Shown here piece by piece: positions 7,218-37,415 of a stretch of DNA of 64,000 nucleotides (its first letter is position 1; the number at the start of each line of letters is the position of its first letter). The stretch is from NCBI RefSeq assembly GCF_029227855.1, contig NZ_CP074356.1; one strand, given 5' to 3'. The notes under the pieces are model-generated. The model was not told the DNA's origin. It did no database searches and saw only the letters and a list, made by a program, of their open reading frames with translations. Both the position numbers and the translations under genes were made by a program. The DNA comes from Escherichia coli (lineage in GTDB: Bacteria > Pseudomonadota > Gammaproteobacteria > Enterobacterales > Enterobacteriaceae).

Positions 7218-8440
7218 TGGCACTGTTTTACTATCAGGCGCTGGAGCGTAATGGTCGCAAAACCAGAGGTATGATTGAGGCGGATTCCGCGCGTCATGCC
7301 CGCCAGTTGTTGCGCGGTAAAGAGCTTATCCCCGTGCACATTGAAGCACGGATGAATGCTTCGACAGGGGGAATGTTGCAGCGTCGGCGGCACGCACATC
7401 GTCGCGTGGCGGCGGCAGATCTGGCGCTGTTCACGCGCCAACTGGCAACGCTGGTACAGGCAGCAATGCCGCTGGAAACCTGTTTACAGGCGGTCAGTGA
7501 GCAAAGTGAAAAACTGCATGTAAAAAGCCTCGGAATGGCGCTGCGCAGCCGGATTCAGGAAGGCTATACCCTGTCGGACAGCCTGCGCGAACATCCCCGC
7601 GTCTTTGACTCCCTGTTTTGTTCGATGGTCGCTGCCGGAGAAAAATCCGGCCATCTCGACGTGGTGCTTAATCGCCTGGCGGATTACACCGAACAGCGGC
7701 AGCGTCTGAAATCACGCCTGCTGCAGGCCATGCTCTACCCGCTGGTACTGCTGGTGGTGGCAACGGGCGTGGTCACTATTTTGCTGACGGCAGTAGTGCC
7801 GAAAATTATCGAACAGTTTGATCATCTCGGACACGCGCTGCCTGCCTCCACCCGCACGCTCATCGCCATGAGCGACACGTTACAGACCAGCGGCGTTTAC
7901 TGGCTGGCGGGATTGCTGGGGCTTCTGGTGCTGGGGCAACGGCTACTCAAAAATCCTGCCATGCGCCTGCGCTGGGACAAAACCGTGCTGCGCCTGCCTG
8001 TGACGGGGCGTGTTGCGCGCGGGCTGAATACGGCGCGTTTTTCCCGCACCTTAAGCATCCTCACCGCCAGCAGTGTTCCGCTGCTGGAAGGCATTCAGAC
8101 CGCCGCCGCCGTGTCGGCAAATCGTTATGTCGAGCAACAACTGCTGCTGGCGGCAGATCGCGTCCGCGAAGGAAGCAGCCTGCGCGCCGCGCTGGCGGAT
8201 CTGCGCCTGTTCCCGCCGATGATGCTGTACATGATCGCCTCCGGCGAACAGAGCGGCGAACTGGAAACCATGCTTGAGCAGGCCGCAGTCAACCAGGAAC
8301 GGGAATTTGATACCCAGGTGGGGCTGGCGTTGGGGCTGTTTGAACCGGCGCTGGTGGTGATGATGGCGGGCGTGGTGCTGTTTATCGTCATCGCCATCCT
8401 CGAGCCGATGCTGCAACTGAACAATATGGTTGGAATGTAA
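7217..8440 (+). CDS. gspF: T2SS inner-membrane platform protein GspF
   Basis: 407 aa polytopic protein with the duplicated GspF/PilC architecture; overlaps the gspE stop. Confidence 0.9.
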   Translation: MALFYYQALERNGRKTRGMIEADSARHARQLLRGKELIPVHIEARMNASTGGMLQRRRHAHRRVAAADLALFTRQLATLVQAAMPLETCLQAVSEQSEKLHVKSLGMALRSRIQEGYTLSDSLREHPRVFDSLFCSMVAAGEKSGHLDVVLNRLADYTEQRQRLKSRLLQAMLYPLVLLVVATGVVTILLTAVVPKIIEQFDHLGHALPASTRTLIAMSDTLQTSGVYWLAGLLGLLVLGQRLLKNPAMRLRWDKTVLRLPVTGRVARGLNTARFSRTLSILTASSVPLLEGIQTAAAVSANRYVEQQLLLAADRVREGSSLRAALADLRLFPPMMLYMIASGEQSGELETMLEQAAVNQEREFDTQVGLALGLFEPALVVMMAGVVLFIVIAILEPMLQLNNMVGM

Positions 8441-8456
8441 TTTACGGAGTTATCAC

Positions 8457-8912
8457 ATGAATTCGTTATCCCGCACACAAAAACCACGGGCAGGTTTTAC
8501 CCTGCTGGAAGTGATGGTGGTGATTGTTATTCTTGGCGTCCTGGCAAGTCTGGTGGTGCCTAACCTGCTGGGCAACAAAGAGAAAGCCGATCGGCAAAAA
8601 GCCATCAGCGATATCGTGGCGCTGGAGAATGCGCTGGATATGTACCGACTGGATAACGGGCGTTATCCGACCACCGAGCAGGGGCTTGAGGCGCTGATCC
8701 AGCAGCCAGCCAATATGGCGGACGCCCGCAACTACCGTACCGGTGGATACATCAAACGGCTGCCAAAAGATCCGTGGGGCAATGATTATCAGTATCTCAG
8801 CCCGGGTGAAAAAGGGCTGTTTGATGTTTACACCCTGGGGGCAGATGGTCAGGAAAACGGGGAGGGCGCTGGCGCAGATATCGGTAACTGGAATTTGCAG
8901 GAGTTTCAGTAA
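8457..8912 (+). CDS. gspG: T2SS major pseudopilin GspG
   Basis: Prepilin leader ending in G followed by FTLLEVMVV; start placed at the internal Met of the 8430 ORF. Confidence 0.9.
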   Translation: MNSLSRTQKPRAGFTLLEVMVVIVILGVLASLVVPNLLGNKEKADRQKAISDIVALENALDMYRLDNGRYPTTEQGLEALIQQPANMADARNYRTGGYIKRLPKDPWGNDYQYLSPGEKGLFDVYTLGADGQENGEGAGADIGNWNLQEFQ

Positions 8913-8915
8913 TCA

Positions 8916-9479
8916 GTGCCTGAACGCGGATTCACACTTCTGGAAATCATGCTGGTGATTTTCCTTATCGGCCTAGCCAGTGCGGGCGTGGTACAGACAT
9001 TTGCAACCGATTCTGAATCGCCCGCGAAAAAAGCGGCACAGGATTTTCTGACTCGCTTTGCGCAGTTTAAGGACAGGGCCGTAATCGAAGGGCAAACACT
9101 CGGTGTGCTGATCGACCCGCCTGGCTATCAGTTTATGCAGCGTCGTCAGGGGCAGTGGTTGCCCGTTTCTGCGACCCGGTTATCGGCACAGGTTACGGTG
9201 CCAAAACAGGTGCAGATGCTGTTACAACCCGGCAGTGATATCTGGCAGAAGGAGTATGCGCTGGAGCTGCAGCGTCGTCGCCTGACGCTGCACGATATTG
9301 AACTGGAGCTGCAAAAAGAGGCGAAAAAGAAGACGCCGCAGATCCGTTTTTCGCCTTTTGAACCCGCCACGCCGTTTACGCTGCGCTTCTTCTCGGCGGC
9401 GCAAAACGCATGTTGGGCGGTAAAACTGGCACACGATGGCGCGTTATCCCTCAGTCAATGTAATGAGAGGATGCCATGA
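8916..9479 (+). CDS. gspH: T2SS minor pseudopilin GspH
   Basis: Prepilin-type N-terminus (GFTLLEIMLV). Confidence 0.85.
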   Translation: MPERGFTLLEIMLVIFLIGLASAGVVQTFATDSESPAKKAAQDFLTRFAQFKDRAVIEGQTLGVLIDPPGYQFMQRRQGQWLPVSATRLSAQVTVPKQVQMLLQPGSDIWQKEYALELQRRRLTLHDIELELQKEAKKKTPQIRFSPFEPATPFTLRFFSAAQNACWAVKLAHDGALSLSQCNERMP

Positions 9480-9847
9480 AGCGCGGATTTACCTTGCTGG
9501 AAGTGATGCTCGCACTGGCGATTTTTGCGCTGGCTGCCACGGCGGTGTTACAGATTGCCAGCGGTGCGCTGAGTAATCAGCACGTTCTTGAGGAGAAAAC
9601 GGTAGCAGGCTGGGTGGCTGAAAACCAGATTGCGCTGCTCTATCTGATGACCCGCGAGCAGCGGGCGGTCAGCCATCAGGGCGAGAGCGATATGGCAGGA
9701 AGCCGCTGGTACTGGCGAACCACACCGCTGAGTACAGGCAACGCGCTGCTCCAGGCCGTGGATATTGACGTCAGCCGTCACGAAGACTTTTCGTCGGTGA
9801 TTCAGTCACGACGCGCCTGGTTTAGCGCCGTGGGAGGCCAACTGTGA
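9476..9847 (+). CDS. gspI: T2SS minor pseudopilin GspI
   Basis: Prepilin-type N-terminus (GFTLLEVMLALAIF); overlapping start/stop with neighbours. Confidence 0.85.
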   Translation: MKRGFTLLEVMLALAIFALAATAVLQIASGALSNQHVLEEKTVAGWVAENQIALLYLMTREQRAVSHQGESDMAGSRWYWRTTPLSTGNALLQAVDIDVSRHEDFSSVIQSRRAWFSAVGGQL

Positions 9848-10449
9848 GAAGGACTCGCGCTGGTTTCACGTTACTGGAAATGCTGGTGGCGATAGCCATT
9901 TTTGCCTCGCTGGCACTGATGGCGCAGCAGGTGACTAACGGCGTCACACGCGTGAATAGCGCCGTCGCCGGACACGATCAAAAACTAAACCTCATGCAGC
10001 AAACGATGAGTTTTCTGACCCACGATCTGACACAAATGATGCCGCGTCCGGTAAGAGGCGATCAGGGCCAGCGTGAACCAGCGTTACTGGCAGGCCCTGG
10101 CGTGCTGGCGTCTGAGAGTGAAGGGATGCGCTTTGTGCGTGGCGGCGTGGTTAACCCGTTGATGCGTCTGCCACGCAGTAATCTGCTCACCGTCGGTTAC
10201 CGCATTCATGACGGCTATCTCGAACGGTTAGCCTGGCCGCTGACCGATGCCGCAGGCAGCGTGAAGCCGACAATGCAAAAGTTGATTCCGGCGGATTCGC
10301 TCCGCTTGCAGTTCTACGACGGCACGCGCTGGCAGGAGAACTGGTCGTCAGTACAGGCGATCCCTGTGGCGGTGCGCATGACCCTGCATTCGCCGCAATG
10401 GGGCGAGATTGAACGCATCTGGTTGTTACGCGGGCCGCAATTATCATGA
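9844..10449 (+). CDS. gspJ: T2SS minor pseudopilin GspJ
   Basis: Prepilin-type N-terminus (GFTLLEMLVAIAIF). Confidence 0.85.
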   Translation: MRRTRAGFTLLEMLVAIAIFASLALMAQQVTNGVTRVNSAVAGHDQKLNLMQQTMSFLTHDLTQMMPRPVRGDQGQREPALLAGPGVLASESEGMRFVRGGVVNPLMRLPRSNLLTVGYRIHDGYLERLAWPLTDAAGSVKPTMQKLIPADSLRLQFYDGTRWQENWSSVQAIPVAVRMTLHSPQWGEIERIWLLRGPQLS

Positions 10450-11423
10450 TCACCTCACCACCAAAACGCGGAATGGCACTGGTCGTGGTGCTGGTATTGC
10501 TGGCGGTTATGATGCTGGTGACCATCACGCTTTCCGGGCGAATGCAGCAACAACTTGGGCGAACGCGCAGCCAGCAGGAGTACCAGCAGGCGCTGTGGTA
10601 CAGCGCCAGTGCGGAAAGCCTGGCGTTGAGCGCACTCAGTCTGAGCCTGAAAAATGAAAAGCGCGTGCATCTGGCGCAGCCGTGGGCTTCCGGCCCTCGT
10701 TTTTTCCCACTGCCGCAGGGGCAAATCGCCGTCACTCTGCGTGACGCACAGGCCTGCTTTAACCTGAATGCCCTCGCTCAGCCGACGACGGCGTCGCGTC
10801 CGCTCGCGGTACAACAACTGATTGCCCTGATCTCGCGCCTTGATGTACCTGCTTATCGGGCCGAACTGATAGCCGAAAGCCTGTGGGAGTTTATTGACGA
10901 AGACCGCAGCGTGCAGACGCGTCTGGGTCGTGAAGACAGCGAGTATCTCGCCCGCTCGGTGCCGTTCTACGCCGCTAATCAACCGCTGGCGGATATCAGC
11001 GAGATGCGCGTGGTGCAGGGAATGGACGCCGGGCTTTATCAAAAACTGAAACCGTTGGTCTGTGCGCTGCCGATGGCCCGCCAGCAAATCAACATCAATA
11101 CCCTGGACGTCGCGCAAAGTGTGATTCTTGAGGCGCTGTTTGACCCGTGGTTAAGCCCTGTTCAGGCGCGGGCATTATTACAACAACGTCCGGCGAAGGG
11201 CTGGGAAGATGTCGATCAGTTTCTTGCTCAGCCGCTACTTGCAGACGTCGATGAGCGTACTAAAAAACAGCTAAAAACCGTCCTGAGCGTGGACAGCAAT
11301 TACTTCTGGCTGCGTTCAGATATCACCGTGAATGAGATTGAACTGACGATGAACTCGTTAATTGTTCGCATGGGCCCACAACACTTTTCTGTTCTCTGGC
11401 ATCAGACAGGAGAAAGTGAGTGA
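10446..11423 (+). CDS. gspK: T2SS minor pseudopilin GspK
   Basis: 325 aa with N-terminal hydrophobic segment; position after gspJ. Confidence 0.85.
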   Translation: MITSPPKRGMALVVVLVLLAVMMLVTITLSGRMQQQLGRTRSQQEYQQALWYSASAESLALSALSLSLKNEKRVHLAQPWASGPRFFPLPQGQIAVTLRDAQACFNLNALAQPTTASRPLAVQQLIALISRLDVPAYRAELIAESLWEFIDEDRSVQTRLGREDSEYLARSVPFYAANQPLADISEMRVVQGMDAGLYQKLKPLVCALPMARQQININTLDVAQSVILEALFDPWLSPVQARALLQQRPAKGWEDVDQFLAQPLLADVDERTKKQLKTVLSVDSNYFWLRSDITVNEIELTMNSLIVRMGPQHFSVLWHQTGESE

Positions 11424-20372: not shown

Positions 20373-21062
20373 TTACAGGTTAAATTCAGGGAGACATATG
20401 TTTTTTTCATCATGTCTATATTTGTCTATGGCAAGTGATATATCCTTGTAATATAAGGTGTGATTATTCCTCCCAAAGTAAATGGCCTCATCGCAATATT
20501 CTTTTAATAAGTTAAGACTATGAGAGACTATCAAAAAATTTGATTTTTCATGTTTTTCCCTAAATAAGGAAAAACATTTCTCTTTAAATCTGGCGTCTCC
20601 CACAGCCATAACTTCATCAACAAGATAATAATCAAAATCAAATGCCATGCTGAGTCCAAATCCTAACCGAGAACGCATGCCAGAAGAATATGTTTTTATT
20701 GGCATGTCAAAGTATTTCCCCAGTTCGGAAAATTCCTCTACAAATGAAACCTTATCTTGCAGCTCATCTTTTTTAGCATAAAGTCTTGCAACAAATTTAA
20801 CATTTTCACGCCCTGTCAGACTGCCTTGAAAACCACCAGCTAAACCTACTGGCCATGAAATGGTTTGATCAGTAAGTATTCTCCCCTTATCTGGTCGATC
20901 TATACCACCTATTATTCGAAGCAATGTTGATTTACCTGCACCATTGCGTCCAACTAAAGCAACACTTTTTCCTGTGGGTAATTCAATATTTAAATCTTTA
21001 AAAACATAATGTCTTCCTTTAGGTGTACGATATGATTTGGTGAGATTCTCAATACGTATCAT
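20373..21062 (-). CDS. kpsT: capsule polysaccharide export ABC transporter ATP-binding protein KpsT
   Basis: Walker A GRNGAGKST, ABC signature YSSGMRSRL, Walker B DYYLVDE; start placed at MIRIENLTK, overlapping the kpsM stop (ATGA). Confidence 0.9.
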   Translation of the reverse strand: MIRIENLTKSYRTPKGRHYVFKDLNIELPTGKSVALVGRNGAGKSTLLRIIGGIDRPDKGRILTDQTISWPVGLAGGFQGSLTGRENVKFVARLYAKKDELQDKVSFVEEFSELGKYFDMPIKTYSSGMRSRLGFGLSMAFDFDYYLVDEVMAVGDARFKEKCFSLFREKHEKSNFLIVSHSLNLLKEYCDEAIYFGRNNHTLYYKDISLAIDKYRHDEKNICLPEFNL

Positions 21063-21838
21063 GAGGTTAACATAGCCTCCTCTTTGAAACGGTAAAGGCA
21101 AAGTCCTACGAAAAACACTACTAAAGAAAAAAATGCAAGATAATTAATACTAACACCTTCACTTATATATCCCGGTACAACAGATTGGCGACTTAACTCC
21201 ACAACATGTACTAAAGGATTCCATAATAAATATCCCCAGTATATTTTAGGGATAGAATGGAGAGGAAACATTACGCAAGATATGAAATAAAGAGGTTTAA
21301 TCATTATGGGCAAAAATTTTTCCGTTTCTGGGAAAGTTTTACCTAACACCATGAAAATTAAACCTATACCAAGAGAAAATATAATAAGTAATCCCCAAGT
21401 TGCAGCGAGTATAATGATGTTTAAAAATGAAAATTCTTCTCCAAGTAGACCTACAATTGACATGAGGATTATGTAAACACCACTATATATTAATGCTTCA
21501 AGAAGGGTTCGTGAAATTATGGTGTCAATAGGCTTTATAGGCCTGTAATTAAATAAGCCCTGATTAGAGTTTATTGCTCCAATAGAGCGGACAGCAATAT
21601 TACTAAAAAGAAAATAAGGGATAAGTCCGTTTAGAAGAAACACTGGGAACGATATATCTGGCATAGTTCTATGCATAATATATCCAAATATACCAATCAA
21701 GATTATCAAATGTGCTGTTGGCTCAAGGAGTGCCCATAAATACCCCAGACGATATTTACCAAAACGAGTCTTAATTTCACGAAGAAATAAAGCTTTTACT
21801 GCTGCTATTTGAACTTCAAAACCACTTCTTCTAGCCAT
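21059..21838 (-). CDS. kpsM: capsule polysaccharide export ABC transporter permease KpsM
   Basis: Start at internal Met (MARRSGFEVQ...), giving about 259 aa with six hydrophobic segments and the characteristic C-terminus ...EEAMLTS. Confidence 0.9.
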   Translation of the reverse strand: MARRSGFEVQIAAVKALFLREIKTRFGKYRLGYLWALLEPTAHLIILIGIFGYIMHRTMPDISFPVFLLNGLIPYFLFSNIAVRSIGAINSNQGLFNYRPIKPIDTIISRTLLEALIYSGVYIILMSIVGLLGEEFSFLNIIILAATWGLLIIFSLGIGLIFMVLGKTFPETEKFLPIMIKPLYFISCVMFPLHSIPKIYWGYLLWNPLVHVVELSRQSVVPGYISEGVSINYLAFFSLVVFFVGLCLYRFKEEAMLTS

Positions 21839-21865
21839 TTGAGATATAACCTTAATATATTTTGG

Positions 21866-21877
21866 TACGCTACCGCC
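21866..21877 (-). promoter_or_regulatory. ops (RfaH-loading) element in the kpsM leader
   Basis: Minus-strand sequence GGCGGTAGCGTA about 30 nt upstream of the kpsM ATG; matches the GGCGGTAGnnT ops core found in JUMPstart leaders. Confidence 0.6.
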
Positions 21878-22247
21878 CTTGGCTCTAGCTACCAGCATGC
21901 TCGGGCGTACCATATGAGACAAACCAGAATGGACAGATAAATATTTCGTCTGGTATTAGTTTGTCTTTTCTTTACGAAAATACTTATAGATTGGACAATG
22001 AAAAATTTGGTTTAAGGCAGTCCAACCTATGTAATGTTATTGAAACATCCTGCTAATAATCTTAAATTTAATGTTTCATTAAGTTCTATCAATTTAAACA
22101 CATTGATTTGCGAATTCTATCATTTAGACTTACAGATAACTCCAGTGTTTAATATGTAAACATGCCTCATAAATTGCAAGGTAGATTGCAGGTTGCTAAT
22201 CTTTTGTTACTTATATAAAATCTGTTTTGTTTATTTTATATCAAATT

Positions 22248-23480
22248 TTATTTATTGTTCAATGCAGAATTGGTTTCTAATGTAATAGTGTCGCAGTGTA
22301 ACTGTGACTCCCCATAATAAACCCCATTAACCTGCGTCTTCACCAATAAATACCCCCGAAACTTCTTAAACAGTTTCATATCCGGTTTAAAATCGGCCTG
22401 CCAGAACTGGTGCAAATGCCCTTGATACGTCAAGCCTTTGATGTCGTACAGGGCATTGCCCATCACTTTGAGTGGTTTGTTATGAATCAGCGCAGAGATC
22501 CCCGCCGTACTGTTAATCGTCACTACCGCTTTTGCATGGCGTAATAATTCCGGCATCGGGAGATCGTGCACATAAATGACTCGCTCATCTAAGCCATATT
22601 CCTTACTCAATCGCTTAATTAATGGTCGATAGAGTCTGTGACCACGATCCATCGGATGATGTTTGATCACCAAATAACTTTCTTTCGGCGCTTTACGTGA
22701 AAATGAGTACATGACTTCATTAATATAGTCACGCACATCGTTATAATTACTGTGGTTACGAATCTGGCTATCGTTATATACCTGCAAAACGGCAAGATAA
22801 TAACGCTGGTCCAGCTCGTTCATTAACCTCGGTAATACCTTACGCTGTGTTACCTTGTAAAGTTGCTTGCGCCAGTATGCACGAACCCAGCAACGAGCCT
22901 CATACCAGGGGGAAAACGATTTATGGTGGCGGTAGCGAGGGAACTCATGGCGGTAATGCCAGCCCATCAGGTAATACCACATCGCATGACCTATACGTTT
23001 CATCGTTGAAGGTTTAAAGTTCTCAACGTGCGGCGTAGGCATATCTGGTAACTTACGATAAAAATCCGGATCGCGCGGTAGCGATGAATATGCGTTTACT
23101 CCGCCTTCTTCAACGGTAATAAATTGCGGGCGTAAATATCCTTCCTCAAATGCCAGAAAGCGGATCCCTTTCGACTTTGCCCAACGTTTTGCTTCTTTGT
23201 GCAATGGGCGGCAGTCACCAAAGCAGAGGATGGTATCAAAGTCATATTGCCGGTGGAGATCCCGTAACCATCCGGGGAACTCTTTCGGCGTTTGGTAGTA
23301 AGCCAGGTATTGTCGATGGCGGCAGTAAAAACGATCCCCACCGTTGAATACAACATTCACAGCGTTACGTCCTAATGACTCTAACCATTCGGCGACGTCA
23401 TTGAAAAAAGGTCCCATCGGCCCCTGCAATAGCAGATATTTTTTACCGGATAATAAAACGGTTAGAGCATTACCTTGCAT
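22248..23480 (-). CDS. kpsS: capsule biosynthesis protein KpsS (beta-Kdo transferase that starts the glycolipid linker)
   Basis: 410 aa ORF following kpsC, with conserved KpsS-type motifs (TINSTAGISALIHNKPL). Confidence 0.9.
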   Translation of the reverse strand: MQGNALTVLLSGKKYLLLQGPMGPFFNDVAEWLESLGRNAVNVVFNGGDRFYCRHRQYLAYYQTPKEFPGWLRDLHRQYDFDTILCFGDCRPLHKEAKRWAKSKGIRFLAFEEGYLRPQFITVEEGGVNAYSSLPRDPDFYRKLPDMPTPHVENFKPSTMKRIGHAMWYYLMGWHYRHEFPRYRHHKSFSPWYEARCWVRAYWRKQLYKVTQRKVLPRLMNELDQRYYLAVLQVYNDSQIRNHSNYNDVRDYINEVMYSFSRKAPKESYLVIKHHPMDRGHRLYRPLIKRLSKEYGLDERVIYVHDLPMPELLRHAKAVVTINSTAGISALIHNKPLKVMGNALYDIKGLTYQGHLHQFWQADFKPDMKLFKKFRGYLLVKTQVNGVYYGESQLHCDTITLETNSALNNK

Positions 23481-23514
23481 AAATAATTTCCGTAATAGTC
23501 AACTATGAAATTGT

Positions 23515-25542
23515 TTAGCCAAATCTGACCTTGCAGAACATAATTAATTTGCGGTAATAACGTATTACTCGCCCCGCTTTTTTTCTGGTAATAAACAACG
23601 GCTTGCGCGGCGTCTGGATCAAATATTCCGCCGCCTCTTCAACCGTAATAGGTTGTAGCCGTGTTGGGTGGATATAGGTTGGATAAACAATCAACGCCTG
23701 ATAGATCAAATCTGCTAACGTTAATTTTTGCTCGCGGCGCGGGCAGTGATGTTCATCAACGGTTAAACCCCAACCGGCATAGAAGGGCAGGCCGTAACAA
23801 TGAACTTGCTTGCCATGTAATAACGCTTCAAACCCGGACAATGATGTCATGGTGTGCACTTCATCTGCGCGCTGAATGCATTGAATAATATCTGCGTCCA
23901 GTGCCTGATAATCAGCGAGTTCAGCAATTAGTTCTGCCGGAATGTCGCCCTTGCGATTCCCCACCAGTACATCCGGGTGCGGTTTATAAACAATGTAGGC
24001 GTGCGGATTACGCTCGCGTACTGTGCGTAATAACTCAAGGTTGCTCTTAATCGAGACAGTGCCTGTTTTAATAGAGGCATCGTCCTCTACCTGACCCGGC
24101 ACCAGGATAACTTTTTTATCTTTGGCTTCGGCTGGTAGAGAGAAATTGGCTCCCAGGTTGTACTTACTCAGTTTGCTTTCAACCAGTCGCTGGCGTAATT
24201 TTTCAGCTCGCATCTGCTGCGCCAGCGTTAACTGGCTGTGATTAAGCAGGACTTCCAGGTCGCTGGGGCGCGTGGCGTCATAGTAGATCCCGCGTTTATC
24301 CAGTACCAACGATAGCGGCGGCAGCAGGTCAGAGCCAAGTCCGGATGAACGCAGAAAACCATCTTCCATTCGCCATAACGGCAGTGATTTTTGTTGCGCT
24401 TCGGCTAGCCATTGCTGTTCTCCCTTTACACCCCATACCACGCAAGCCGTCGCCGCAGTACAGCGGCGTGAATAACTCAGTCTGTTTGTTGCGGTACGCA
24501 AGAAAGGTTTCAGGATTGCCGACTTCCACAGCGTTAAGCCTGGCGACCATAAATAGCCATTACGCTGTTGCTGATGGTTGCGCTGTAATTGCAGCCATTG
24601 CAGTACGGTAAACAGATCGCTTGCGGCCCCCGTGAGCGGGTCGATATAGCGACAGTAACGCAGGTATGCAGCGGCAAAAAGTTCTTCCAGCGTGGCAGAA
24701 CCGCGTCGGGCAGATAACAAAGCGGACTGCGGATGGCGATCGTCGGTTAAGCCCCAGCCTGCATACCAGGGCTGGCCGAAACATGTTACTGGTTTTCCTG
24801 CCAGCAAGGCTTCAAAGCCGTATTGGGATGTCACGACGTAAACCCGGGAAACGTGTCGCAACAGCGACTGCGGGCTGACATTCTCGGCAATCAAACGTAC
24901 TCGTTGCGTGGCGCGCAGATCAGCGAAATAACCTGTTTTCTTTCCTTCCAGGACATCCGGATGCACCTTCACCCAAATTTCGGCTTGAGGATTTTCCGCC
25001 ATCGCGGCTTCCAGCATGGCAGCAAACTCATGCGGGCCAGCATTGCCATACGTCACTGACATATCATTAAATGTCTGATCGACAACCAGAACGATGTCTG
25101 AACGTTCTGACTCATCAGCCACAAACGCAGGTGCCAGGTTATATTTCGACAAATCCCCGGTCACGATGGTGTGCATCGCTTCTCTGGCCAGGCTTATCAG
25201 AGCTGTATTTCCGGCTTTATCCTGTACCAGTTTCTCCAGTGCTGAAGGCTTGCTGGCATCGTAGTAAATGCCACAATCATCCACCACCAGAGAAAGCGGC
25301 GGCTCGCCATTGACGCCAAGATCCAGCGAACGCACAAATCCATCTTCCAGACGAATGACGGGTTTTCCCGCTGCTTTGGCGATGGCGACTGGTTTCGCCG
25401 CGCTGGGACGATGTCCCCACACGGCGATAGCATCAACTTCTTGTGGAACAGGGCGCAGCAGAGAAAGTTTCTGGCACGGTTGCGCCAGAAATTTCTCCAG
25501 ATGCGGAATACGCCAGATACCGGACGAGAAAATGCCAATCAT
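23515..25542 (-). CDS. kpsC: capsule biosynthesis protein KpsC (dual-module beta-Kdo transferase)
   Basis: 675 aa with two repeated modules each containing EDGF[VL]RS...GFEALL...FYAGWGLT; overlaps kpsU stop. Confidence 0.9.
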
Positions 25543-26279
25543 GCGTTTTCAGCCAGTTCCTGTGCCATCAGGGCGCGCACTTTTTCCAGGCATGCTGGGG
25601 TGTCGACGCCCGGACCGGTTGCGGCAACCTCAAATGTGCGGATGTTGATCCCCGCGCTCATCAACCGCAGCTGCTCCAGTGATTCTGCCTGCTCCGGCAT
25701 GGACTCCGGTAACTGGCTGTAGTTTTGCAGCACATCACGACGATAAGCATAAATACCGACGTGTTTCAGGTAGCGCGCTTTTTCAGCATTACGCGGATAC
25801 GGAATCGGCGAACGGCTGAAATAAAGTGCATCCTGGCGGGTATTCACAACCACTTTTACCGTGCTTGGCTCGGCCGCTTCTTCGGCAGAAATCGCGTGGC
25901 ATAGCGTTGCCACTGGCAACGCGGGATCGTCACGCATTCCTTGTAGCAGCGTTTCTACATCCCGCGGGCGAATCATTGGTTCATCGCCCTGCAAGTTAAT
26001 GTAGATATCTGCTTCCACCGTATGCATTACCTCGACCAGCCGATCGGTGCCGGATTCATGATCGTTGCGCGTCATGATGGCTTTCCCGCCAAATGCCTGC
26101 ACGGCCTTTTCAACACGCGGGTCGTCTGTTGCCACCCAAACTTCCGCAACGCCCGCCACCTGTAACGCACGCTCGTAAACATGCTGGATCATCGGTTTAC
26201 CAACAATATCGAGCAGTGGCTTACCCGGCAGACGCGATGAGCCATAACGAGCCGGGATGACAATAACAGCTTTGCTCAT
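25539..26279 (-). CDS. kpsU: CMP-Kdo synthetase KpsU
   Basis: 246 aa; N-terminal [22 protein letters not shown] nucleotide-binding motif of KdsB-family cytidylyltransferases. Confidence 0.9.
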
Positions 26280-26288
26280 TTCAACTCC

Positions 26289-27968
26289 TTACAAAGACAG
26301 AATCACTTTTGCACCCACCGCCAGCTGATAGAGGATGGTGGAAATACCACGGGTAACTTCAATATTTTTCGATTCATATTTCGGTAGAACCATAATCTCA
26401 TCGCCCGGCTTGAGTGAATCCACGTCTTCTGCGTTGACGGCTGCACCGTTCTGACGAATGACGATAATTCTGGCGTTACCCGATTTCTGCGTCAGGCCAC
26501 CACATTTCTCGATGTAATCCTCGGTGGTCATACCCTTCTGCCAGCTCACCGCGTTCGGGAACAGCACTTCGCCATGAACCATAACCAGCGATGTTTTCTC
26601 CGGAATATTGATGACGTCGCCATCTTCAAGCAGAACAGAATCAATATTGGATTCGTTGAGGATCACTTCACCTTTCGGAACCACGGTGCGTGCTTTCGCC
26701 ACAAAGCGGCTGATCAGTTGTGCTTCCTGCATTCGCAGGCTGGCTTCTTCTTTGGTGGATGACTGGGCAGAAAGTGAGGCTTCCTCCAGTTTTTGCAGCG
26801 AGAGATTCAGCATCTCTTTCTGACGCTGAGCTACTGATGGGCGATAAAGCTGAACCGCGTTCATCTGCGACATGCTGTTCGGGCGGACTTTTTCCAGAAC
26901 CGCACGCATAGTGGAACCATAAGGCAGTACCATGGCATGTTCACCGGAGTGCGCGCCTTCAACCCGCACCTGAATGGTGCCGGCATAGCGGTCAGTGCTC
27001 ACGATTAAGGTATCGCCATTTTGCAACATACGGCCTGGTGCAGAACTGATCGGATAGTATTCGCTGCGTTTTTGCAGCCCCTGTTTACGCATAATCGTAA
27101 TGTGAGTCGCGCCAGGCTTAGGGCGCGCCCAGCTCAACGCTTCCGTTACGGGAATGCTGCTTTCGCGGAACTCAAAGTCGTAGCTGTTAAAGACATCGCC
27201 CTGAACGCTGAAAGTATGCTGACGCGGCCCGACGATGATGGTGTCACCATCGGCGAACTGCGAAAGCCCCAGTTTGCCGTTCAGCAGGAAGTCGTACAGG
27301 TTGACGTTGGAGCGCACGCGGTTACCGCGCTTGACCACAATATCAACGTAACTTCCGCGCTCTGGATCAACGCCGCCAGCCTTGATCAGATAATTGAGTA
27401 ACGAATCAGACGTCACACCGCCATACAGACCAGGATTACGCACAAATCCGGTCACGTACACTTTTACTGGCTGCGCCTGTAATAAGGAGGCGTAGACGTT
27501 GACGTTGGACTGGTACACTTCCTTCACTTTTGATGTAACCAGAGTGTTCAACTGACTATTGCTAACCCCGGCAACTTTCACCGGACCAACGTTTGGCAGA
27601 AAAATATTACCTTTGGGATCAATCTGTAATGCACCATCAAAGGTGAACGCACCCCACAAGCGAACCTGAATGCTATCACCCGGATTCAGAATATAGTCAG
27701 GGTTGAATCCTACCGTCGCACCGCTATCCGCGCTGGTGCCGTTGAAAAGTTGAGCACCAAACATACGGCTCATTACCACCGGCGGTGCGGGGGGTGGAGT
27801 ATTGTCGAAGCCGCTCATGTTTTGCGTATCCGACTGTTGCCCGTTCAGAATACCGGTAAGCGGCGCGGCTCCTGTCAGGTTTGGGTCAGCGTTAATATCA
27901 ATGGCCGCGCTGGCCTGCGCCGCGTGACAGGCGGCAATCAGTAAAATTGATTTAAATAATTTCATCAC
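26289..27968 (-). CDS. kpsD: capsule export periplasmic/outer-membrane protein KpsD
   Basis: 559 aa with signal peptide (MMKLFKSILLIAACHAAQA); conserved position between kpsE and kpsU. Confidence 0.9.
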   Translation of the reverse strand: MMKLFKSILLIAACHAAQASAAIDINADPNLTGAAPLTGILNGQQSDTQNMSGFDNTPPPAPPVVMSRMFGAQLFNGTSADSGATVGFNPDYILNPGDSIQVRLWGAFTFDGALQIDPKGNIFLPNVGPVKVAGVSNSQLNTLVTSKVKEVYQSNVNVYASLLQAQPVKVYVTGFVRNPGLYGGVTSDSLLNYLIKAGGVDPERGSYVDIVVKRGNRVRSNVNLYDFLLNGKLGLSQFADGDTIIVGPRQHTFSVQGDVFNSYDFEFRESSIPVTEALSWARPKPGATHITIMRKQGLQKRSEYYPISSAPGRMLQNGDTLIVSTDRYAGTIQVRVEGAHSGEHAMVLPYGSTMRAVLEKVRPNSMSQMNAVQLYRPSVAQRQKEMLNLSLQKLEEASLSAQSSTKEEASLRMQEAQLISRFVAKARTVVPKGEVILNESNIDSVLLEDGDVINIPEKTSLVMVHGEVLFPNAVSWQKGMTTEDYIEKCGGLTQKSGNARIIVIRQNGAAVNAEDVDSLKPGDEIMVLPKYESKNIEVTRGISTILYQLAVGAKVILSL

Positions 27969-27988
27969 AAACTCATTCAGCGACAGCG

Positions 27989-29137
27989 TTAGTCTCGGTG
28001 ATCTTCAATAACAGCCAGCAACAGTTTCAGGGTGCCGAACAGCAGGCAGCACACCAGTAACCAGCAGGCGATCAAATAAGGGATATTTGGAAAAGACGAT
28101 TCCTGCGGCAACTGTGGCGAACTGATCACTGACAGCACCTTGAGCTTACGAGCCGCTTCTACACGGGTCTTTTCAATGGAGGTCAGGGTCAGTTTGTACA
28201 GCTCGGTGTTGAACTCTACTTTTGATTTGATTTCTTCAAAATCCACCGCCATACGGTTTAGCTTGTCACCCTGCGGCGCTGTGATTTTGCTTTTTTCTTC
28301 GTCAATTTGTGCCTGCAATGACTGAATCGCATTACGCGCACTCACAACTTGCGGGGCGTCCTCACGCAGATACGTCAGCAAGTTCCGCAGGTCCGCTTCC
28401 ATCTGGATCTTCTGGCCCATCAGCGTATTCACTAACGTGCTCGCCGCCTGTGCCTGTGCCTGTGGATCCAGAACGTTGTTGTTGTCTTGATAAGAGAGCA
28501 ATTCCGCTTTGCTGGCGTCCAGACGCTGGCGTGCCTTTTCCATCTCCGTTTCTGCAAAGGCAAGCTGGTCACGCGCGATGCGATGTGACATCTCATTGAT
28601 AAAGCGCTCTGACTCTTTCAGCACGGTTTGGTTAAACTTAAGCGCAAATTCCGGGCTAAAGCCCTGCGTCTGAATATTCAGTAATCCGGTTTTATCGTCA
28701 TACGAGACGTTGATACGGTCCTTGTAGTACTTCAGGAAGCCTTCTGCGGTTTCATCCTTGCTAAGATGATTAAGAAAATCGAGCCCGCTGTGGCTAAACG
28801 CTTCACGAAAATTTAGTTGCTTATCCAGCGCCGCCAGCATATCCGGCGAGTTGATGTACTCTTTCAGATACAACGCATCTTCTGCGGAACTGGGGTTAGA
28901 GGCACCCAGAAGCAGACCAAAATTCAGGCTGCCGCTGTTTAAATCATCCGAGCGTTTAATGGCGACTTTCGACTCGCTCATATAGCGAGGCTGGCTGAAG
29001 ATAGCCAGATAGATCAGCAGCACCGCCATCGGTGCCAGAATGATGATTTTCGCCAGGTGTTTTTGGATATCTGCCAGTGAGATGGCAGACAGACGAGCAC
29101 GCATCCAGGATACGGCAGACTTCACTTTTATCAACAT
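27989..29137 (-). CDS. kpsE: capsule export inner-membrane co-polymerase-like protein KpsE
   Basis: 382 aa with N- and C-terminal membrane segments flanking a coiled-coil-rich periplasmic domain. Confidence 0.9.
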   Translation of the reverse strand: MLIKVKSAVSWMRARLSAISLADIQKHLAKIIILAPMAVLLIYLAIFSQPRYMSESKVAIKRSDDLNSGSLNFGLLLGASNPSSAEDALYLKEYINSPDMLAALDKQLNFREAFSHSGLDFLNHLSKDETAEGFLKYYKDRINVSYDDKTGLLNIQTQGFSPEFALKFNQTVLKESERFINEMSHRIARDQLAFAETEMEKARQRLDASKAELLSYQDNNNVLDPQAQAQAASTLVNTLMGQKIQMEADLRNLLTYLREDAPQVVSARNAIQSLQAQIDEEKSKITAPQGDKLNRMAVDFEEIKSKVEFNTELYKLTLTSIEKTRVEAARKLKVLSVISSPQLPQESSFPNIPYLIACWLLVCCLLFGTLKLLLAVIEDHRD

Positions 29138-29208
29138 GTAACGATTATCAAAGTTTCAGTGGGGCGCAAACTCAATGAGAGACTAACCTCTCGCACCCCG
29201 TTGCTTAA

Positions 29209-30192
29209 TTAGTCGAAAATGCGCACAAGGCCAGTGACTTTATTTGCCTTGTTGGTCACCAATAACGTTGAGACGCGGTGCTTTTGCATTTTTTCTTCCG
29301 CTTCAATGATCATGGTGTCTTCCGGTAGCGTCAGCGGTTCACGTGTCATCATCTGCGCAGCCGTGGCGGATGTCAGAGAATCCTCTTTTTCCATAAAGCG
29401 ACGCAGGTCACCGTCGGTGATAATGCCCGCTAGCCCACCTTCTGCGTCTTCTACCATCACCATTCCCTGGCATCCGCTGGTGATACGTTGAATCACGGTT
29501 TTAAATGACGCATCCAGCTGTACCGCAGGAACATCATGCTGCATGACATCAGCAACGCGGGTCAGCAGGCGACGACCTAATGAACCGCCCGGGTGATAGC
29601 GCGCAAAATCATTCGGCATAAATTTGCGTTGGTGGATCATGGCAATCGCCAGCGCATCGCCGATCGCCATCGTCAGCGTGGTAGACGTTGTTGGTGCAAG
29701 ATTATTCGGGCAGGTTTCATTCGCCATGTGGAGTTCCAGCACGGCATCAGCATTTTTCGCCAGCGTGGAATTTCCATTATTGGTAATGGCGATAATTCGG
29801 TTGCCGAAATTTTTCAGTGAAGGAACTAGCTTGAGGATTTCATCCGTTTCACCGCTGGCAGAAATAAGGATCAGAAGATCGTAAGGCGTAATCATGCCCA
29901 GATCGCCATGGAAAGCTTCTGCAGGATGAATAAAGAAACTAGGCGTACCCGTAGAGGCCAGCGTCGCTGACATTTTACGACCGACATGCCCTGATTTACC
30001 CATTCCCGAAAGAATAACGTGACCTTTACAGTTCATTATCAAATTAAGGACACGCTGGTACTGCCCGGAATCCAGTTGTTTAGACAAGTTTTGTAATGCT
30101 GCGCCTTGTTCTGCCAGAGTCTGGCGAACAGAGGTAATTAGATATGGATCGATAGTACTGCTCTGGTCATCAGGTAAATGTCTTTCAGACAT
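29209..30192 (-). CDS. kpsF: arabinose-5-phosphate isomerase KpsF (start at internal Met; the ORF track extends 12 codons further)
   Basis: SIS domain (GMGKSGHVGRKMSATLASTG) plus tandem CBS domains; 327 aa from MSERHLP. Confidence 0.9.
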   Translation of the reverse strand: MSERHLPDDQSSTIDPYLITSVRQTLAEQGAALQNLSKQLDSGQYQRVLNLIMNCKGHVILSGMGKSGHVGRKMSATLASTGTPSFFIHPAEAFHGDLGMITPYDLLILISASGETDEILKLVPSLKNFGNRIIAITNNGNSTLAKNADAVLELHMANETCPNNLAPTTSTTLTMAIGDALAIAMIHQRKFMPNDFARYHPGGSLGRRLLTRVADVMQHDVPAVQLDASFKTVIQRITSGCQGMVMVEDAEGGLAGIITDGDLRRFMEKEDSLTSATAAQMMTREPLTLPEDTMIIEAEEKMQKHRVSTLLVTNKANKVTGLVRIFD

Positions 30193-30400
30193 ATCAGCTC
30201 CTTTGCACGGAAATAATGCCACAGTCACAACAAACCCGAACCCACTATAATTTATTTATGCTAAATCAATGGGTTGTAACAAAATTTTTAATGAATATAA
30301 AACCATGGTCAGTCCATGCTTATATGCAGGACTTATCACCTTCTTATTAAGTCGCAATGTCTCATGGAGGTGCGAAGATGCTGCAATATTACAGGCGAGA
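30193..30400 (-). promoter_or_regulatory. kps region 1 promoter/leader region with an IHF-consensus match
   Basis: AT-rich sequence upstream of kpsF; AATCAATGGGTTG at 30264-30276 fits WATCAANNNNTTR. Sequence motif only. Confidence 0.35.
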
Positions 30401-31002
30401 AGGGGAACCAAATTTTGCCCACCTATTTAACACACCCCTACATTATGAACAAGGAATTTAGGATTTTTATCATTTATTAAAATGTTTCCTACTTGACTAT
30501 TAAGACCAAAAACAATTTATCAATTGATTATTTCCTTGTAAAAAAAGAACGTATGACTATGTTATTAATAAATAAAACACGCAAATAATGGTGATGTTGT
30601 TTTGTGATTAACTATTTAAGTGCGGCATAATAAACAGGTTGATAATTTCTATGTAAAGAAGAGGAAAATAATAAAATTTTAGCGGTGACTATTGAATGAT
30701 GTGATAGTTGTGGTGTTGATTATTTCTGGTAATGAATGCGGAATTAAATCTGGCCGGATTGTATTTTTGCTATATCTATTTTTCAGGAGATTATTATTAA
30801 ATAGAAAAATAACAATGGTGATTATCTCCGGTTGAGCTGGAGTCACGTATGCCAGCGAGTGCTTTCTTCCGGGCCTTCCTTCACTTCAGAGAAAGAGCCT
30901 ATGGAAAAGAGGCAATCATCAGGCTTTTTTTGAGTCATATGCGCCGATAATCAACTGTCTTGAACGTAAAAATTATGGAGCAACATGATGCTACGATTCA
31001 TT

Positions 31003-31233
<231 letters not shown>

Positions 31234-31339
31234 TTATGTGAACTGAACTGTGTTTTGTTAGCGGGGGATGTTTATTGATGATTCGGGAGTGTTTAAGACC
31301 TGATGGCGTTATGCTCCCAAGTTTATTTTATATAAAGAT

Positions 31340-31372
31340 CCAAAAGCAAAAACCCGCCTTGTGAGCGGGTTC
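31340..31372 (-). terminator. rho-independent terminator downstream of pheV
   Basis: Stem aacccgc / gcgggtt with 7 nt loop; the minus strand reads the hairpin followed by a T run. Confidence 0.6.
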
Positions 31373-31383
31373 TTAAGAATTAG

Positions 31384-31459
31384 TGGTGCCCGGACTCGGA
31401 ATCGAACCAAGGACACGGGGATTTTCAATCCCCTGCTCTACCGACTGAGCTATCCGGGC
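31384..31459 (-). tRNA. pheV: tRNA-Phe (GAA)
   Basis: Reverse complement is GCCCGGATAGCTCAGTCGGTAGAGCAGGGGATTGAAAATCCCCGTGTCCTTGGTTCGATTCCGAGTCCGGGCACCA: 76 nt with cloverleaf, GAA anticodon and encoded CCA. Confidence 0.95.

Positions 31460-36308: not shown

Positions 36309-37415
<1,107 letters not shown>

Follow-up and report, generated by a model that had tools for sequence, protein, structure and literature searches.

A K126 group 2 capsule locus of Escherichia coli with the atypical kpsS–kpsM layout

The capsule locus in the window, as we call the whole 64,000-nucleotide stretch of Escherichia coli DNA analysed here, is by its sequence very probably an intact group 2 (2A) ABC-transporter locus of type K126 with the atypical G2 layout. 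It was presumably formed by cassette replacement, may be subject to cassette swapping and would be expressed from a spacer promoter, by read-through or by both, with RfaH. The layout is real but already known: atypical group 2 was described in 2026 (Gladstone et al.), and the architecture is also in the kTYPr paper and in a preprint on KL112 in ST131. An earlier note on this DNA had named reference group 2 loci with the same kpsS–kpsM adjacency and orientation as what would speak against its reading; such loci exist (K126, atypical G2, KL112), so the layout is non-textbook yet already catalogued.

Gene coordinates were taken from ORF calls in the window and from the RefSeq annotation of an identical genome. 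The whole locus is bounded by gspM (12600–13136) and the pheV tRNA-Phe gene (31384–31459), the usual gsp operon–pheV site. On the minus strand, kpsFEDUCS (30192–22248) is followed by a 409-bp spacer, kpsM, kpsT and three serotype genes, that is, by region 3 and then region 2, the order that defines the atypical G2 architecture. All six region 1 ORFs are intact, kpsF and kpsU included. The earlier note had placed kpsM and kpsT about 410 bp after kpsS on the same strand, which the ORF coordinates and the RefSeq annotation confirm (21839–22247). Its description of the block as all co-directional holds for kpsMT and three region 2 genes and fails for the acetyltransferase gene. The features are as follows.

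12600–13136, plus strand: gspM (yghD), chromosomal anchor on one side (NCBIfam NF007274, 408 bits)
13142–13650, plus strand: conserved distal end of atypical loci, about 0.5 kb, unannotated, containing a 34-codon ORF
14102–14683, plus strand: hexapeptide-repeat acetyltransferase, K126_12 (NCBIfam acetyltransferase matches; md5 identical to K126_12), on the strand opposite to the remainder of the locus
14772–15800, minus strand: galE, UDP-glucose 4-epimerase, K126_11 (TIGR01179, 438 bits; md5 identical)
15812–18214, minus strand: 800-aa multidomain glycosyltransferase, K126_10 (md5 identical to K126_10)
18221–20179, minus strand: 652-aa GT4 glycosyltransferase, K126_9 (md5 identical; weak GT4 matches in NCBIfam)
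20373–21062, minus strand: kpsT, ABC transporter ATPase (ABC ATPase matches, RefSeq annotation)
21059–21838, minus strand: kpsM, ABC transporter permease, divergent allele WP_032152072.1 (NF050053 KpsM)
21866–21902, minus strand: JUMPstart with ops (Rfam JUMPstart), putative RfaH loading site
21839–22247, minus strand: kpsS–kpsM spacer, 409 bp
22114–22122, minus strand: candidate extended −10 element TGaTAGAAT (motif match in the spacer)
22248–23480, minus strand: kpsS, 410 aa, canonical KpsS plus a 21-aa C-terminal extension
23515–25542, minus strand: kpsC (RefSeq annotation)
25539–26279, minus strand: kpsU (RefSeq annotation)
26289–27965, minus strand: kpsD (RefSeq annotation)
27989–29137, minus strand: kpsE (RefSeq annotation)
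29209–30192, minus strand: kpsF (RefSeq annotation)
30193–31402, upstream of kpsF: PR1 promoter region, conserved relative to Nissle
31384–31459, minus strand: tRNA-Phe (pheV), anchor on the other side (ARAGORN)

The assignment to K126 rests on the four K-specific proteins (652, 800, 342 and 193 aa), which are md5-identical to K126_9 to K126_12 (kTYPr supplement, PMC13171606); the locus combines the K126-specific gene set with intact essential genes kpsEDCSMT. The kTYPr catalogue classes K126 as G2A (Nat Microbiol 2026, PMC13171606). Compared by K-specific proteins and span, the locus showed no detected difference from the K126 reference (NZ_CP074356.1:782101–798192), which spans 16,092 bp against 16,091 bp here. 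Numbering of the K-specific genes as 9–12 places kpsMT at positions 7–8, and with the span this suggests that the reference order would likewise be kpsFEDUCS-MT-region 2. K126_10 comprises Capsule_synth, TPR and GT29-like domains (kTYPr supplement, PMC13171606) and is labelled a GT29 family protein by RefSeq. The start of kpsT overlaps the stop of kpsM by 4 nt, and the exact KpsM protein WP_032152072.1 occurs on at least 1000 Escherichia contigs.

The ops element, which the earlier note had placed about 30 nt upstream of kpsM, is indeed there: GGCGGTAGCGT lies at 21867–21877 on the minus strand, 28 nt before the ATG, and aligns with the canonical K5 element. Its core, GGCGGTAG, is on the non-template strand within the leader, as in RfaH-dependent operons. 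The surrounding Rfam JUMPstart match (21866–21902, minus strand) covers the full model, scores 32.8 bits (E = 3e-4; gathering score 35) and is the sole credible match in an Rfam scan of 12500–23500; two other weak matches in that interval, to eukaryotic families, were judged to be chance. A single copy of ops/JUMPstart stands directly 5′ of kpsM in nine of nine loci examined. A second ops-like match, at 36317–36327, falls within a predicted ORF (36309–37391) among conserved core genes on the far side of pheV, and chance would account for it.

As the canonical comparator we used the K5 locus of Nissle 1917 (L002), ordered gspM - kpsMT(+) - kfiABCD(+) - kpsSCUDEF(−). In the textbook arrangement, regions 1 and 3 are convergent around region 2, and PR3 lies 741 bp upstream of kpsM. 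The departure from this arrangement that the earlier note had described is borne out by the comparison, with kpsMT following kpsS on one strand and similarity to the canonical leader absent. The two loci share the chromosomal site from gspM to pheV, the gene set kpsFEDUCS plus kpsMT, the position of JUMPstart/ops 28 nt before kpsM, and region 1 at 97.5% nucleotide identity (window 22314–31402). They differ in the orientation of the kpsMT and region 2 block, which is opposite in the K126 locus, and in kpsMT itself, which is about 71% identical as DNA and 75% (KpsM) and 76% (KpsT) identical as protein. KpsS, 98% identical in amino acids to Nissle KpsS, is 21 aa longer in the K126 locus (extension codons in 22251–22313). 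The K126 locus lacks the ~1-kb kpsM leader that carries PR3 and has the conserved distal segment in its stead. The absence of the usual distant PR3 leader, suspected in the earlier note, is clear in that Nissle L002:1286–2278 has no similarity anywhere in the window; homology to the canonical kpsM leader is limited to the last ~56 nt of the spacer. The convergent layout marks the textbook arrangement and not the 2A lineage as the 2026 catalogues use it.

For the transcription of kpsMT and region 2 we propose the following. RNA polymerase would arrive at kpsM from a spacer promoter, by un-terminated read-through from PR1, or by both; JUMPstart/ops, just before kpsM, would then load RfaH, and RfaH would, as at canonical loci, carry transcription across kpsMT and on through region 2, which is AT-rich. 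The PR3 promoter is no longer there, nor is its long leader, the target of H-NS/SlyA binding. The spacer has 31% GC and 15% C, and no terminator-like hairpin was found between kpsS and kpsM. Terminator scans recognised none in this spacer or in the canonical kpsS–kfiD spacer, so terminator absence does not discriminate. Scans for promoter consensus sequences, run on the spacer and on the DNA downstream of canonical kpsS, gave no more matches than expected from shuffled sequence, and folding of the spacer RNA (z = −2.4) gave no interpretable structure. The spacer contains one extended −10 motif, the candidate TGaTAGAAT, where by our own estimate about 0.1 would be expected by chance, and this motif is conserved in the L007-type locus (spacer 83% identical). 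Upstream of kpsF, PR1 is conserved together with the DNA around it.

The whole locus could alternatively be one PR1-driven operon, with kpsMT and region 2 transcribed wholly by read-through from kpsS and without a promoter of their own; we consider this possible but unlikely. Group 3 loci are generally regarded as single transcription units, and here all eight kps genes lie on one strand with three genes of region 2, across a C-poor, hairpin-free spacer that in L009-type loci is only 155 bp long. Other RfaH-dependent operons, on the other hand, carry JUMPstart in the leader shortly after their own promoter, and the conserved extended −10 candidate in the K126 spacer, together with a perfect TATAAT 117 nt upstream of kpsM in KL112, also speaks against a single operon. 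So does the ~380-nt stretch of transcript ahead of ops, which is not translated and on which Rho could act; Rho-dependent termination there may be compatible with the missing intrinsic terminator. In KL112, kpsMT RNA is below region 1 RNA, as read-through would have it, but the same holds in the canonical arrangement (both 10.64898/2025.12.15.689991), so the KL112 level does not discriminate. We keep a spacer promoter, PR1 read-through or both, followed by RfaH loading at ops, as the preferred account.

The earlier note had read the region 3 plus region 2 block as inverted with respect to region 1. Its orientation is indeed opposite to that in K5, but it is not the canonical block turned round. 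A recent simple inversion of the canonical PR3-kpsMT-region 2 block in an ordinary group 2 locus would explain the orientation of the block and the inverted alignment of its kpsMT to Nissle kpsMT, and KL112 has been termed an ‘inversion event’ in the ST131 preprint (10.64898/2025.12.15.689991). We nevertheless regard this reading as very unlikely, and largely refuted. The divergent kpsMT allele sits beside a nearly identical region 1; after an inversion the ~1-kb PR3 leader should adjoin kpsS, whereas the homologous stretch is the 56 nt upstream of kpsM; a repeat search of 12900–23600 found no inverted repeats or IS elements flanking the block, whose ends are at 13142 and 22313, so that the marks of an IS- or repeat-mediated inversion are missing; and three deeply divergent kpsMT allele families (65–69% amino acid identity to one another) have the same layout.

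Mapping of the breakpoints by alignment to K5, as the earlier note had proposed, put one junction at the stop codon of kpsS and the other 5 nt beyond gspM. On the kpsS side, DNA homology to Nissle ends exactly at the canonical kpsS stop codon (window 22314 = Nissle L002:12025); on the gspM side, the DNA is 95.7% identical to Nissle up to 13141. Both are the usual conserved/variable junctions. Because of these positions, the contrast between kpsMT and region 1, the absence of a canonical leader match and the lack of repeats or IS elements, we favour replacement over inversion: a cassette would have replaced everything between the kpsS stop codon and gspM, bringing a divergent kpsMT allele with its own short leader, plus region 2, all running opposite to the canonical orientation. 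No close kpsMT donor was found among 100,044 species-representative genomes, in which the best non-Escherichia match was 79% (Kluyvera), and of about 30 group-2-like loci in other species none has kpsS upstream of kpsM.

It is highly improbable that this is a group 3 locus or a K15-like hybrid of groups 2 and 3. KpsM and KpsS score below their NCBIfam cut-offs (175 bits against 300 for NF050053, and 399 against 600, respectively), and the position of kpsMT away from the locus edge looks superficially like group 3; loci of that group (K10/K54/K96 type, kpsDMTE - region 2 - kpsCS) also have largely co-directional transporter and biosynthesis genes and make an ABC-transporter-dependent capsule. 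However, the K126 locus does not have this gene order, its region 1 contains kpsF and kpsU, which group 3 loci lack, and both region 1 and KpsS are of the 2A lineage by their near-identity to K5. Its kpsMT transporter genes are preceded by JUMPstart/ops, as in group 2, and kTYPr places K126 in G2A (PMC13171606).

We give virtually no chance to an assembly misjoin across the AT-rich, low-complexity spacer at 21900–22250, which the unusual layout might suggest and the earlier note had allowed for: kpsM, spacer and kpsS form a single unbroken alignment at 93–100% identity in 36 complete genomes, each assembled independently and together covering several countries and hosts, a recurrence that refutes misassembly, and the analogous KL112 junction was verified by long reads (10.64898/2025.12.15.689991). 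Over the three kpsMT allele families, the co-directional kpsS–kpsM junction occurs in 36, 32 and 31 complete E. coli genomes.

In three loci whose region 2 genes differ from one another, the spacer and kpsM are 99.8–100% identical and kpsT is 87–88% identical; at least three region 2 sets have the identical spacer and kpsM in common. In this sub-lineage region 2 appears to be bounded by kpsT and the conserved ~0.5-kb distal segment, which could serve as homology arms for serotype cassette swapping. Four further atypical loci (L003, L004, L005 and L007), two of which lie in different genomic contexts, carry the distal segment at ~90% identity; canonical Nissle K5 lacks it. It occurs in 52 of 5426 complete genomes and is annotated in none. 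Within it lies the 34-codon ORF (13546–13650, plus strand), MVRVLWWIIGLLIIVVIFAVLVVRSRMQDMDDDY. Homology of the segment stops at the stop codon of this ORF, in which substitutions are mostly synonymous or conservative. The 34-aa product matched no Pfam or NCBIfam family and was not among the called proteins in a collection of 15 billion proteins. This conserved distal segment, bounding atypical loci and carrying an unannotated ORF, is a small addition of the present analysis.

Classic group 2 capsules show 37 °C/20 °C thermoregulation. A broader proposal is that loss of PR3 and its leader, with the co-directional fusion, would rewire capsule regulation, giving a ~16-kb single operon fed mostly by PR1 read-through, with RfaH rescue at ops and altered temperature control, and that the 34-codon ORF would encode a membrane peptide and be a genuine accessory gene of the sub-lineage; taken as a whole, we find this decidedly unlikely.

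The ‘atypical G2’ architecture has been described for nine loci, including KL110, KL112 and KL144, which are found in <3.5% of bloodstream isolates, across phylogroups and without IS elements, and an atypical KL144 isolate is K+ (Gladstone et al., Nat Microbiol 2026, PMC13171598; EC-K-typing database). In ST131, KL112 has been confirmed by long reads, with kpsMT expressed by RNA-seq (Potterill et al., bioRxiv 10.64898/2025.12.15.689991). In our KL112 example (ST131 clade C MNCRE44, locus L006), co-directional kpsS-kpsM-kpsT, a kpsS longer at its 3′ end, an absent PR3 leader and divergent kpsMT recur as in K126. KL112 differs in its kpsMT allele family (KpsM 67% and KpsT 69% amino acid identity to the window), in a 376-bp spacer unrelated to that of K126 except for JUMPstart, in the loss of the gsp operon and distal segment next to IS1, and in its region 2. 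The preprint says that ops is lost from KL112 (10.64898/2025.12.15.689991), whereas we found GGCGGTAGCAT ~30 nt upstream of kpsM in L006. The ops element is kept in every atypical locus examined, KL112 included, which is a small addition to those descriptions.

With the architecture catalogued since 2026, the K126 observation does not amount to a new kind of system. The invasiveness and phage sensitivity of E. coli are driven by capsule type, as is the design of vaccines, and atypical loci will be mis-extracted by typing tools built on kpsF...kpsM boundaries.

The earlier note had read the co-directional order kpsS-kpsM-kpsT as an inversion of the region 3 plus region 2 block (kpsMT and the serotype-specific genes) relative to region 1 (kpsFEDUCS). 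The layout itself is confirmed, and its interpretation is partly supported. ORF coordinates bear out the positions of kpsS, kpsM and kpsT and their spacing of about 410 bp, all eight kps genes in the window are intact, and kpsM and kpsT overlap by 4 nt, matching canonical loci. Co-directionality extends to the kps genes and three region 2 genes, but not to the acetyltransferase.

Features of the E. coli chromosomal kps capsule locus (12600-31459), between gspM/yghD and pheV
12600-13136, plus: gspM/yghD
14102-14683, plus: acetyltransferase
14772-15800, minus: galE
15812-18214, minus: 800-aa multidomain transferase
18221-20179, minus: GT4 glycosyltransferase
20373-21062, minus: kpsT
21059-21838, minus: kpsM
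409 bp: kpsS-kpsM spacer
22248-23480, minus: kpsS
23515-25542, minus: kpsC
25539-26279, minus: kpsU
26289-27965, minus: kpsD
27989-29137, minus: kpsE
29209-30192, minus: kpsF
31384-31459, minus: tRNA-Phe pheV

We compared the window by BLASTN with the canonical K5 locus of Nissle 1917 (L002), which runs gspM(+), 1057 bp, kpsM(+), kpsT(+), kfiABCD(+), and then kpsS(-) through kpsF(-). Homology across gspL/M extends to 13141, 5 nt beyond the gspM stop, and region 1 is 97.5% identical over 22314-31402, starting precisely with the final sense codon of kpsS as it stands in K5. Identity is just 71% in kpsMT (20481-21894), which aligns in inverted orientation, and the canonical ~1-kb kpsM leader (L002:1286-2278) has no match anywhere in the window. 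The region 3 promoter PR3, 741 bp upstream of canonical kpsM, therefore falls within the missing stretch, as the earlier note had suspected. At the protein level, KpsM, KpsT and KpsS are 75%, 76% and 98% identical to K5, and, its canonical stop codon having been replaced, KpsS runs on for a further 21 aa. Neither inverted repeats nor IS elements flank the kpsMT plus region 2 block. Given the divergent kpsMT, the missing leader and the lack of flanking repeats or IS elements, the block, although topologically inverted relative to K5, is not a flipped canonical block; from sequence comparison, all that lies between the two standard conserved/variable junctions is best described as another cassette, which brings a kpsMT allele and a short leader of its own. 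The earlier interpretation thus stands for the non-textbook layout, the loss of PR3 and the retention of ops, and gives way on the inversion. The KpsS C-terminal extension differs by atypical family (21 aa at 22251-22313 (-) in the window; 11 or 19 aa in L006, the KL112 locus of ST131 strain MNCRE44, and L008) because homology to canonical loci ends at the canonical stop codon, and is probably a junction by-product.

Misassembly of the kpsS-kpsM junction is excluded, as kpsM-spacer-kpsS aligns unbroken in 36 of 5426 complete E. coli genomes; 20300-23600 is 100% identical in the complete genomes JNEC-KY178, MRSN346647 and MLI106K1. Three co-directional junction families were found among complete genomes.

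Co-directional kpsS-kpsM junction families
K126-type kpsM allele: 36 genomes, spacer 409-415 bp
KL112 type: 32 genomes, spacer 376 bp
Third type, with Stealth/TagF-like region 2 genes: 31 genomes, spacer 155 bp

Together they account for ~99 genomes (~1.8% of complete genomes, and 5-6% of those with group 2 kpsS), and their KpsM alleles share 65-69% of amino acids, as distant from one another as from canonical KpsM. Other Enterobacterales, sampled through representative genomes (Kluyvera, Phytobacter, Rahnella, Chimaeribacter and others), yielded ~30 group-2-like loci, of which none had kpsS upstream of kpsM; wherever kpsS was visible it was convergent; a search of such genomes for a close donor of the K126-type kpsMT allele returned matches of at most 79% identity. 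For the genomes sampled, the co-directional layout is a derived condition held by a minority of loci in Escherichia.

All four K-specific proteins have md5 sums identical to those of K126_9, _10, _11 and _12 in the kTYPr supplement (PMC13171606), which classes K126 as group 2A with reference NZ_CP074356.1:782101-798192 (16,092 bp; kpsF through the acetyltransferase spans 16,091 bp in the window); the numbering 9-12 places kpsMT at positions 7-8. Architecture of this type has been described in three publications, the kTYPr paper being one of them. Gladstone et al. (PMC13171598) name nine K loci with region 2 beyond regions 1 and 3 “atypical G2”, found in <3.5% of bloodstream isolates and in phylogroups A, B2, D and F, without insertion sequences, one such isolate (KL144, n=1) being K+ by serology. 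For KL112 in ST131, a 2026 preprint (10.64898/2025.12.15.689991) reports kpsMT oriented as region 1, a longer kpsS and loss of PR3, with the layout confirmed by long reads and kpsMT still expressed by RNA-seq. Reference group 2 loci that share the kpsS-kpsM adjacency are thus published, which the earlier note had itself listed as grounds for refutation, and both the architecture and K-type K126 are already catalogued as of 2026.

The ops element GGCGGTAGCGT, which the earlier note had placed ~30 nt upstream of kpsM, was located at 21867-21877 (-), 28 nt ahead of the ATG, a spacing also reported in canonical loci (PMC8960920). The Rfam JUMPstart model matches end to end at 21866-21902 (32.8 bits, E = 3e-4, slightly below the gathering score of 35), and JUMPstart/ops lies at the canonical distance in 9/9 loci examined. 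The ST131 preprint states that ops is lost in KL112 (10.64898/2025.12.15.689991); on the contrary, L006 (NZ_CP010876.1) carries GGCGGTAGCAT at 9739-9749 (-), ~30 nt upstream of kpsM, and this core aligns with the K5 (canonical JUMPstart) and K126 elements, indicating that KL112 of ST131 keeps the ops core. A second match in the window, to GGCGGTAGNNT at 36317-36327 (+), falls inside a predicted ORF (36309-37391, -) in the conserved core-gene region past pheV and is probably meaningless, ~0.3 chance matches being expected in the window.

For the transcription of kpsMT and region 2, we think that read-through from PR1, the region 1 promoter, and a local promoter both contribute; RfaH loading at ops would then let transcription continue across kpsMT and into the AT-rich region 2 to its end. 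In RfaH-dependent operons JUMPstart normally lies in the leader right after the operon's own promoter, which favours a candidate promoter in the kpsS-kpsM spacer. The sole extended -10 motif there, TGaTAGAAT (22122-22114, -), is kept in the L007-type spacer (83% identical), and KL112 has a perfect TATAAT 117 nt upstream of kpsM, but promoter-like matches in the spacer are overall no commoner than in shuffles. Upstream of kpsF, PR1 and the sequence around it are conserved. Read-through is favoured by the strand shared by region 1, kpsMT and three region 2 genes, by a spacer that in the window lacks a terminator-like hairpin and gives RNA poor in C (15% C), and by the 155-bp spacer of one junction family. 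However, the region downstream of canonical kpsS likewise lacks a recognisable terminator, and we consider a pure single operon, transcribed by PR1 read-through alone, unlikely.

Within the K126-type family, three region 2 cassettes (K126; an acyltransferase/GT29/GT2 set; a 1070-aa GT29 plus TPR set) occur in loci whose spacer and kpsM are 99.8-100% identical, whereas kpsT in these loci is just 87-88% identical, so serotype swapping seems to break within kpsT. All three cassettes encode a GT29-family (ulosonic-acid transferase-like) protein.

GT29-family proteins of loci with K126-type kpsM
15812-18214: the window
8437-9972: L003, an atypical locus
7551-10763: L004, an atypical locus

These shared proteins are consistent with kpsMT alleles following the chemistry of the polymer, which may be a Kdo-containing one.

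Several atypical loci occupy unusual sites or vary in content. On the 187-kb plasmid NZ_CP137739.1 of pig strain HNSQ2209 (L005), which has IncHI-type transfer genes, positions 1-23000 form a chromosomal-looking segment (nupG-speC-yqgA-pheV-integrase-...-kps) bounded by IS1 and IS5 and carrying an atypical group 2 kps locus; in the literature consulted, group 3B loci alone are plasmid-borne, and this is either real mobilisation or an assembly problem. In YZ22MPE6 (L007, NZ_CP139339.1, 2700-20100), a locus elsewhere on the chromosome, adjoining yeh fimbrial genes, runs kpsFEDUCS-MT followed by genes for a HAD-family protein of 1165 aa and an acyltransferase; its flanking IS1 and IS3 and its retained distal segment suggest that IS elements relocated the unit as a whole. 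The three records of strain ST2747 (NZ_CP007392.1, NZ_CP007393.1 and NZ_CP007394.1) place kpsM at differing distances from the distal segment (~0.45, 3.3 and 5.8 kb), suggesting that kpsT and region 2 have undergone deletion among isolates or variants.

The distal segment (13142-13650, just beyond gspM) is absent from canonical K5 and ~90% conserved in other atypical loci, one on an IncHI-type plasmid and one elsewhere on the chromosome among them; of 5426 complete genomes, 52 carry it and none has it annotated. Its homology ends exactly at the stop of a 34-codon ORF (13546-13650, +; MVRVLWWIIGLLIIVVIFAVLVVRSRMQDMDDDY), whose product has one hydrophobic helix and an acidic tail, whose differences between loci are largely synonymous or conservative, and which matched no protein family in family searches. 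The ORF possibly represents a genuine gene for a small membrane protein; alternatively, the segment may simply be a recombination arm. The residual value of the locus lies in its transcription mechanism, in this conserved segment with its small ORF, and in the correction concerning ops in KL112.
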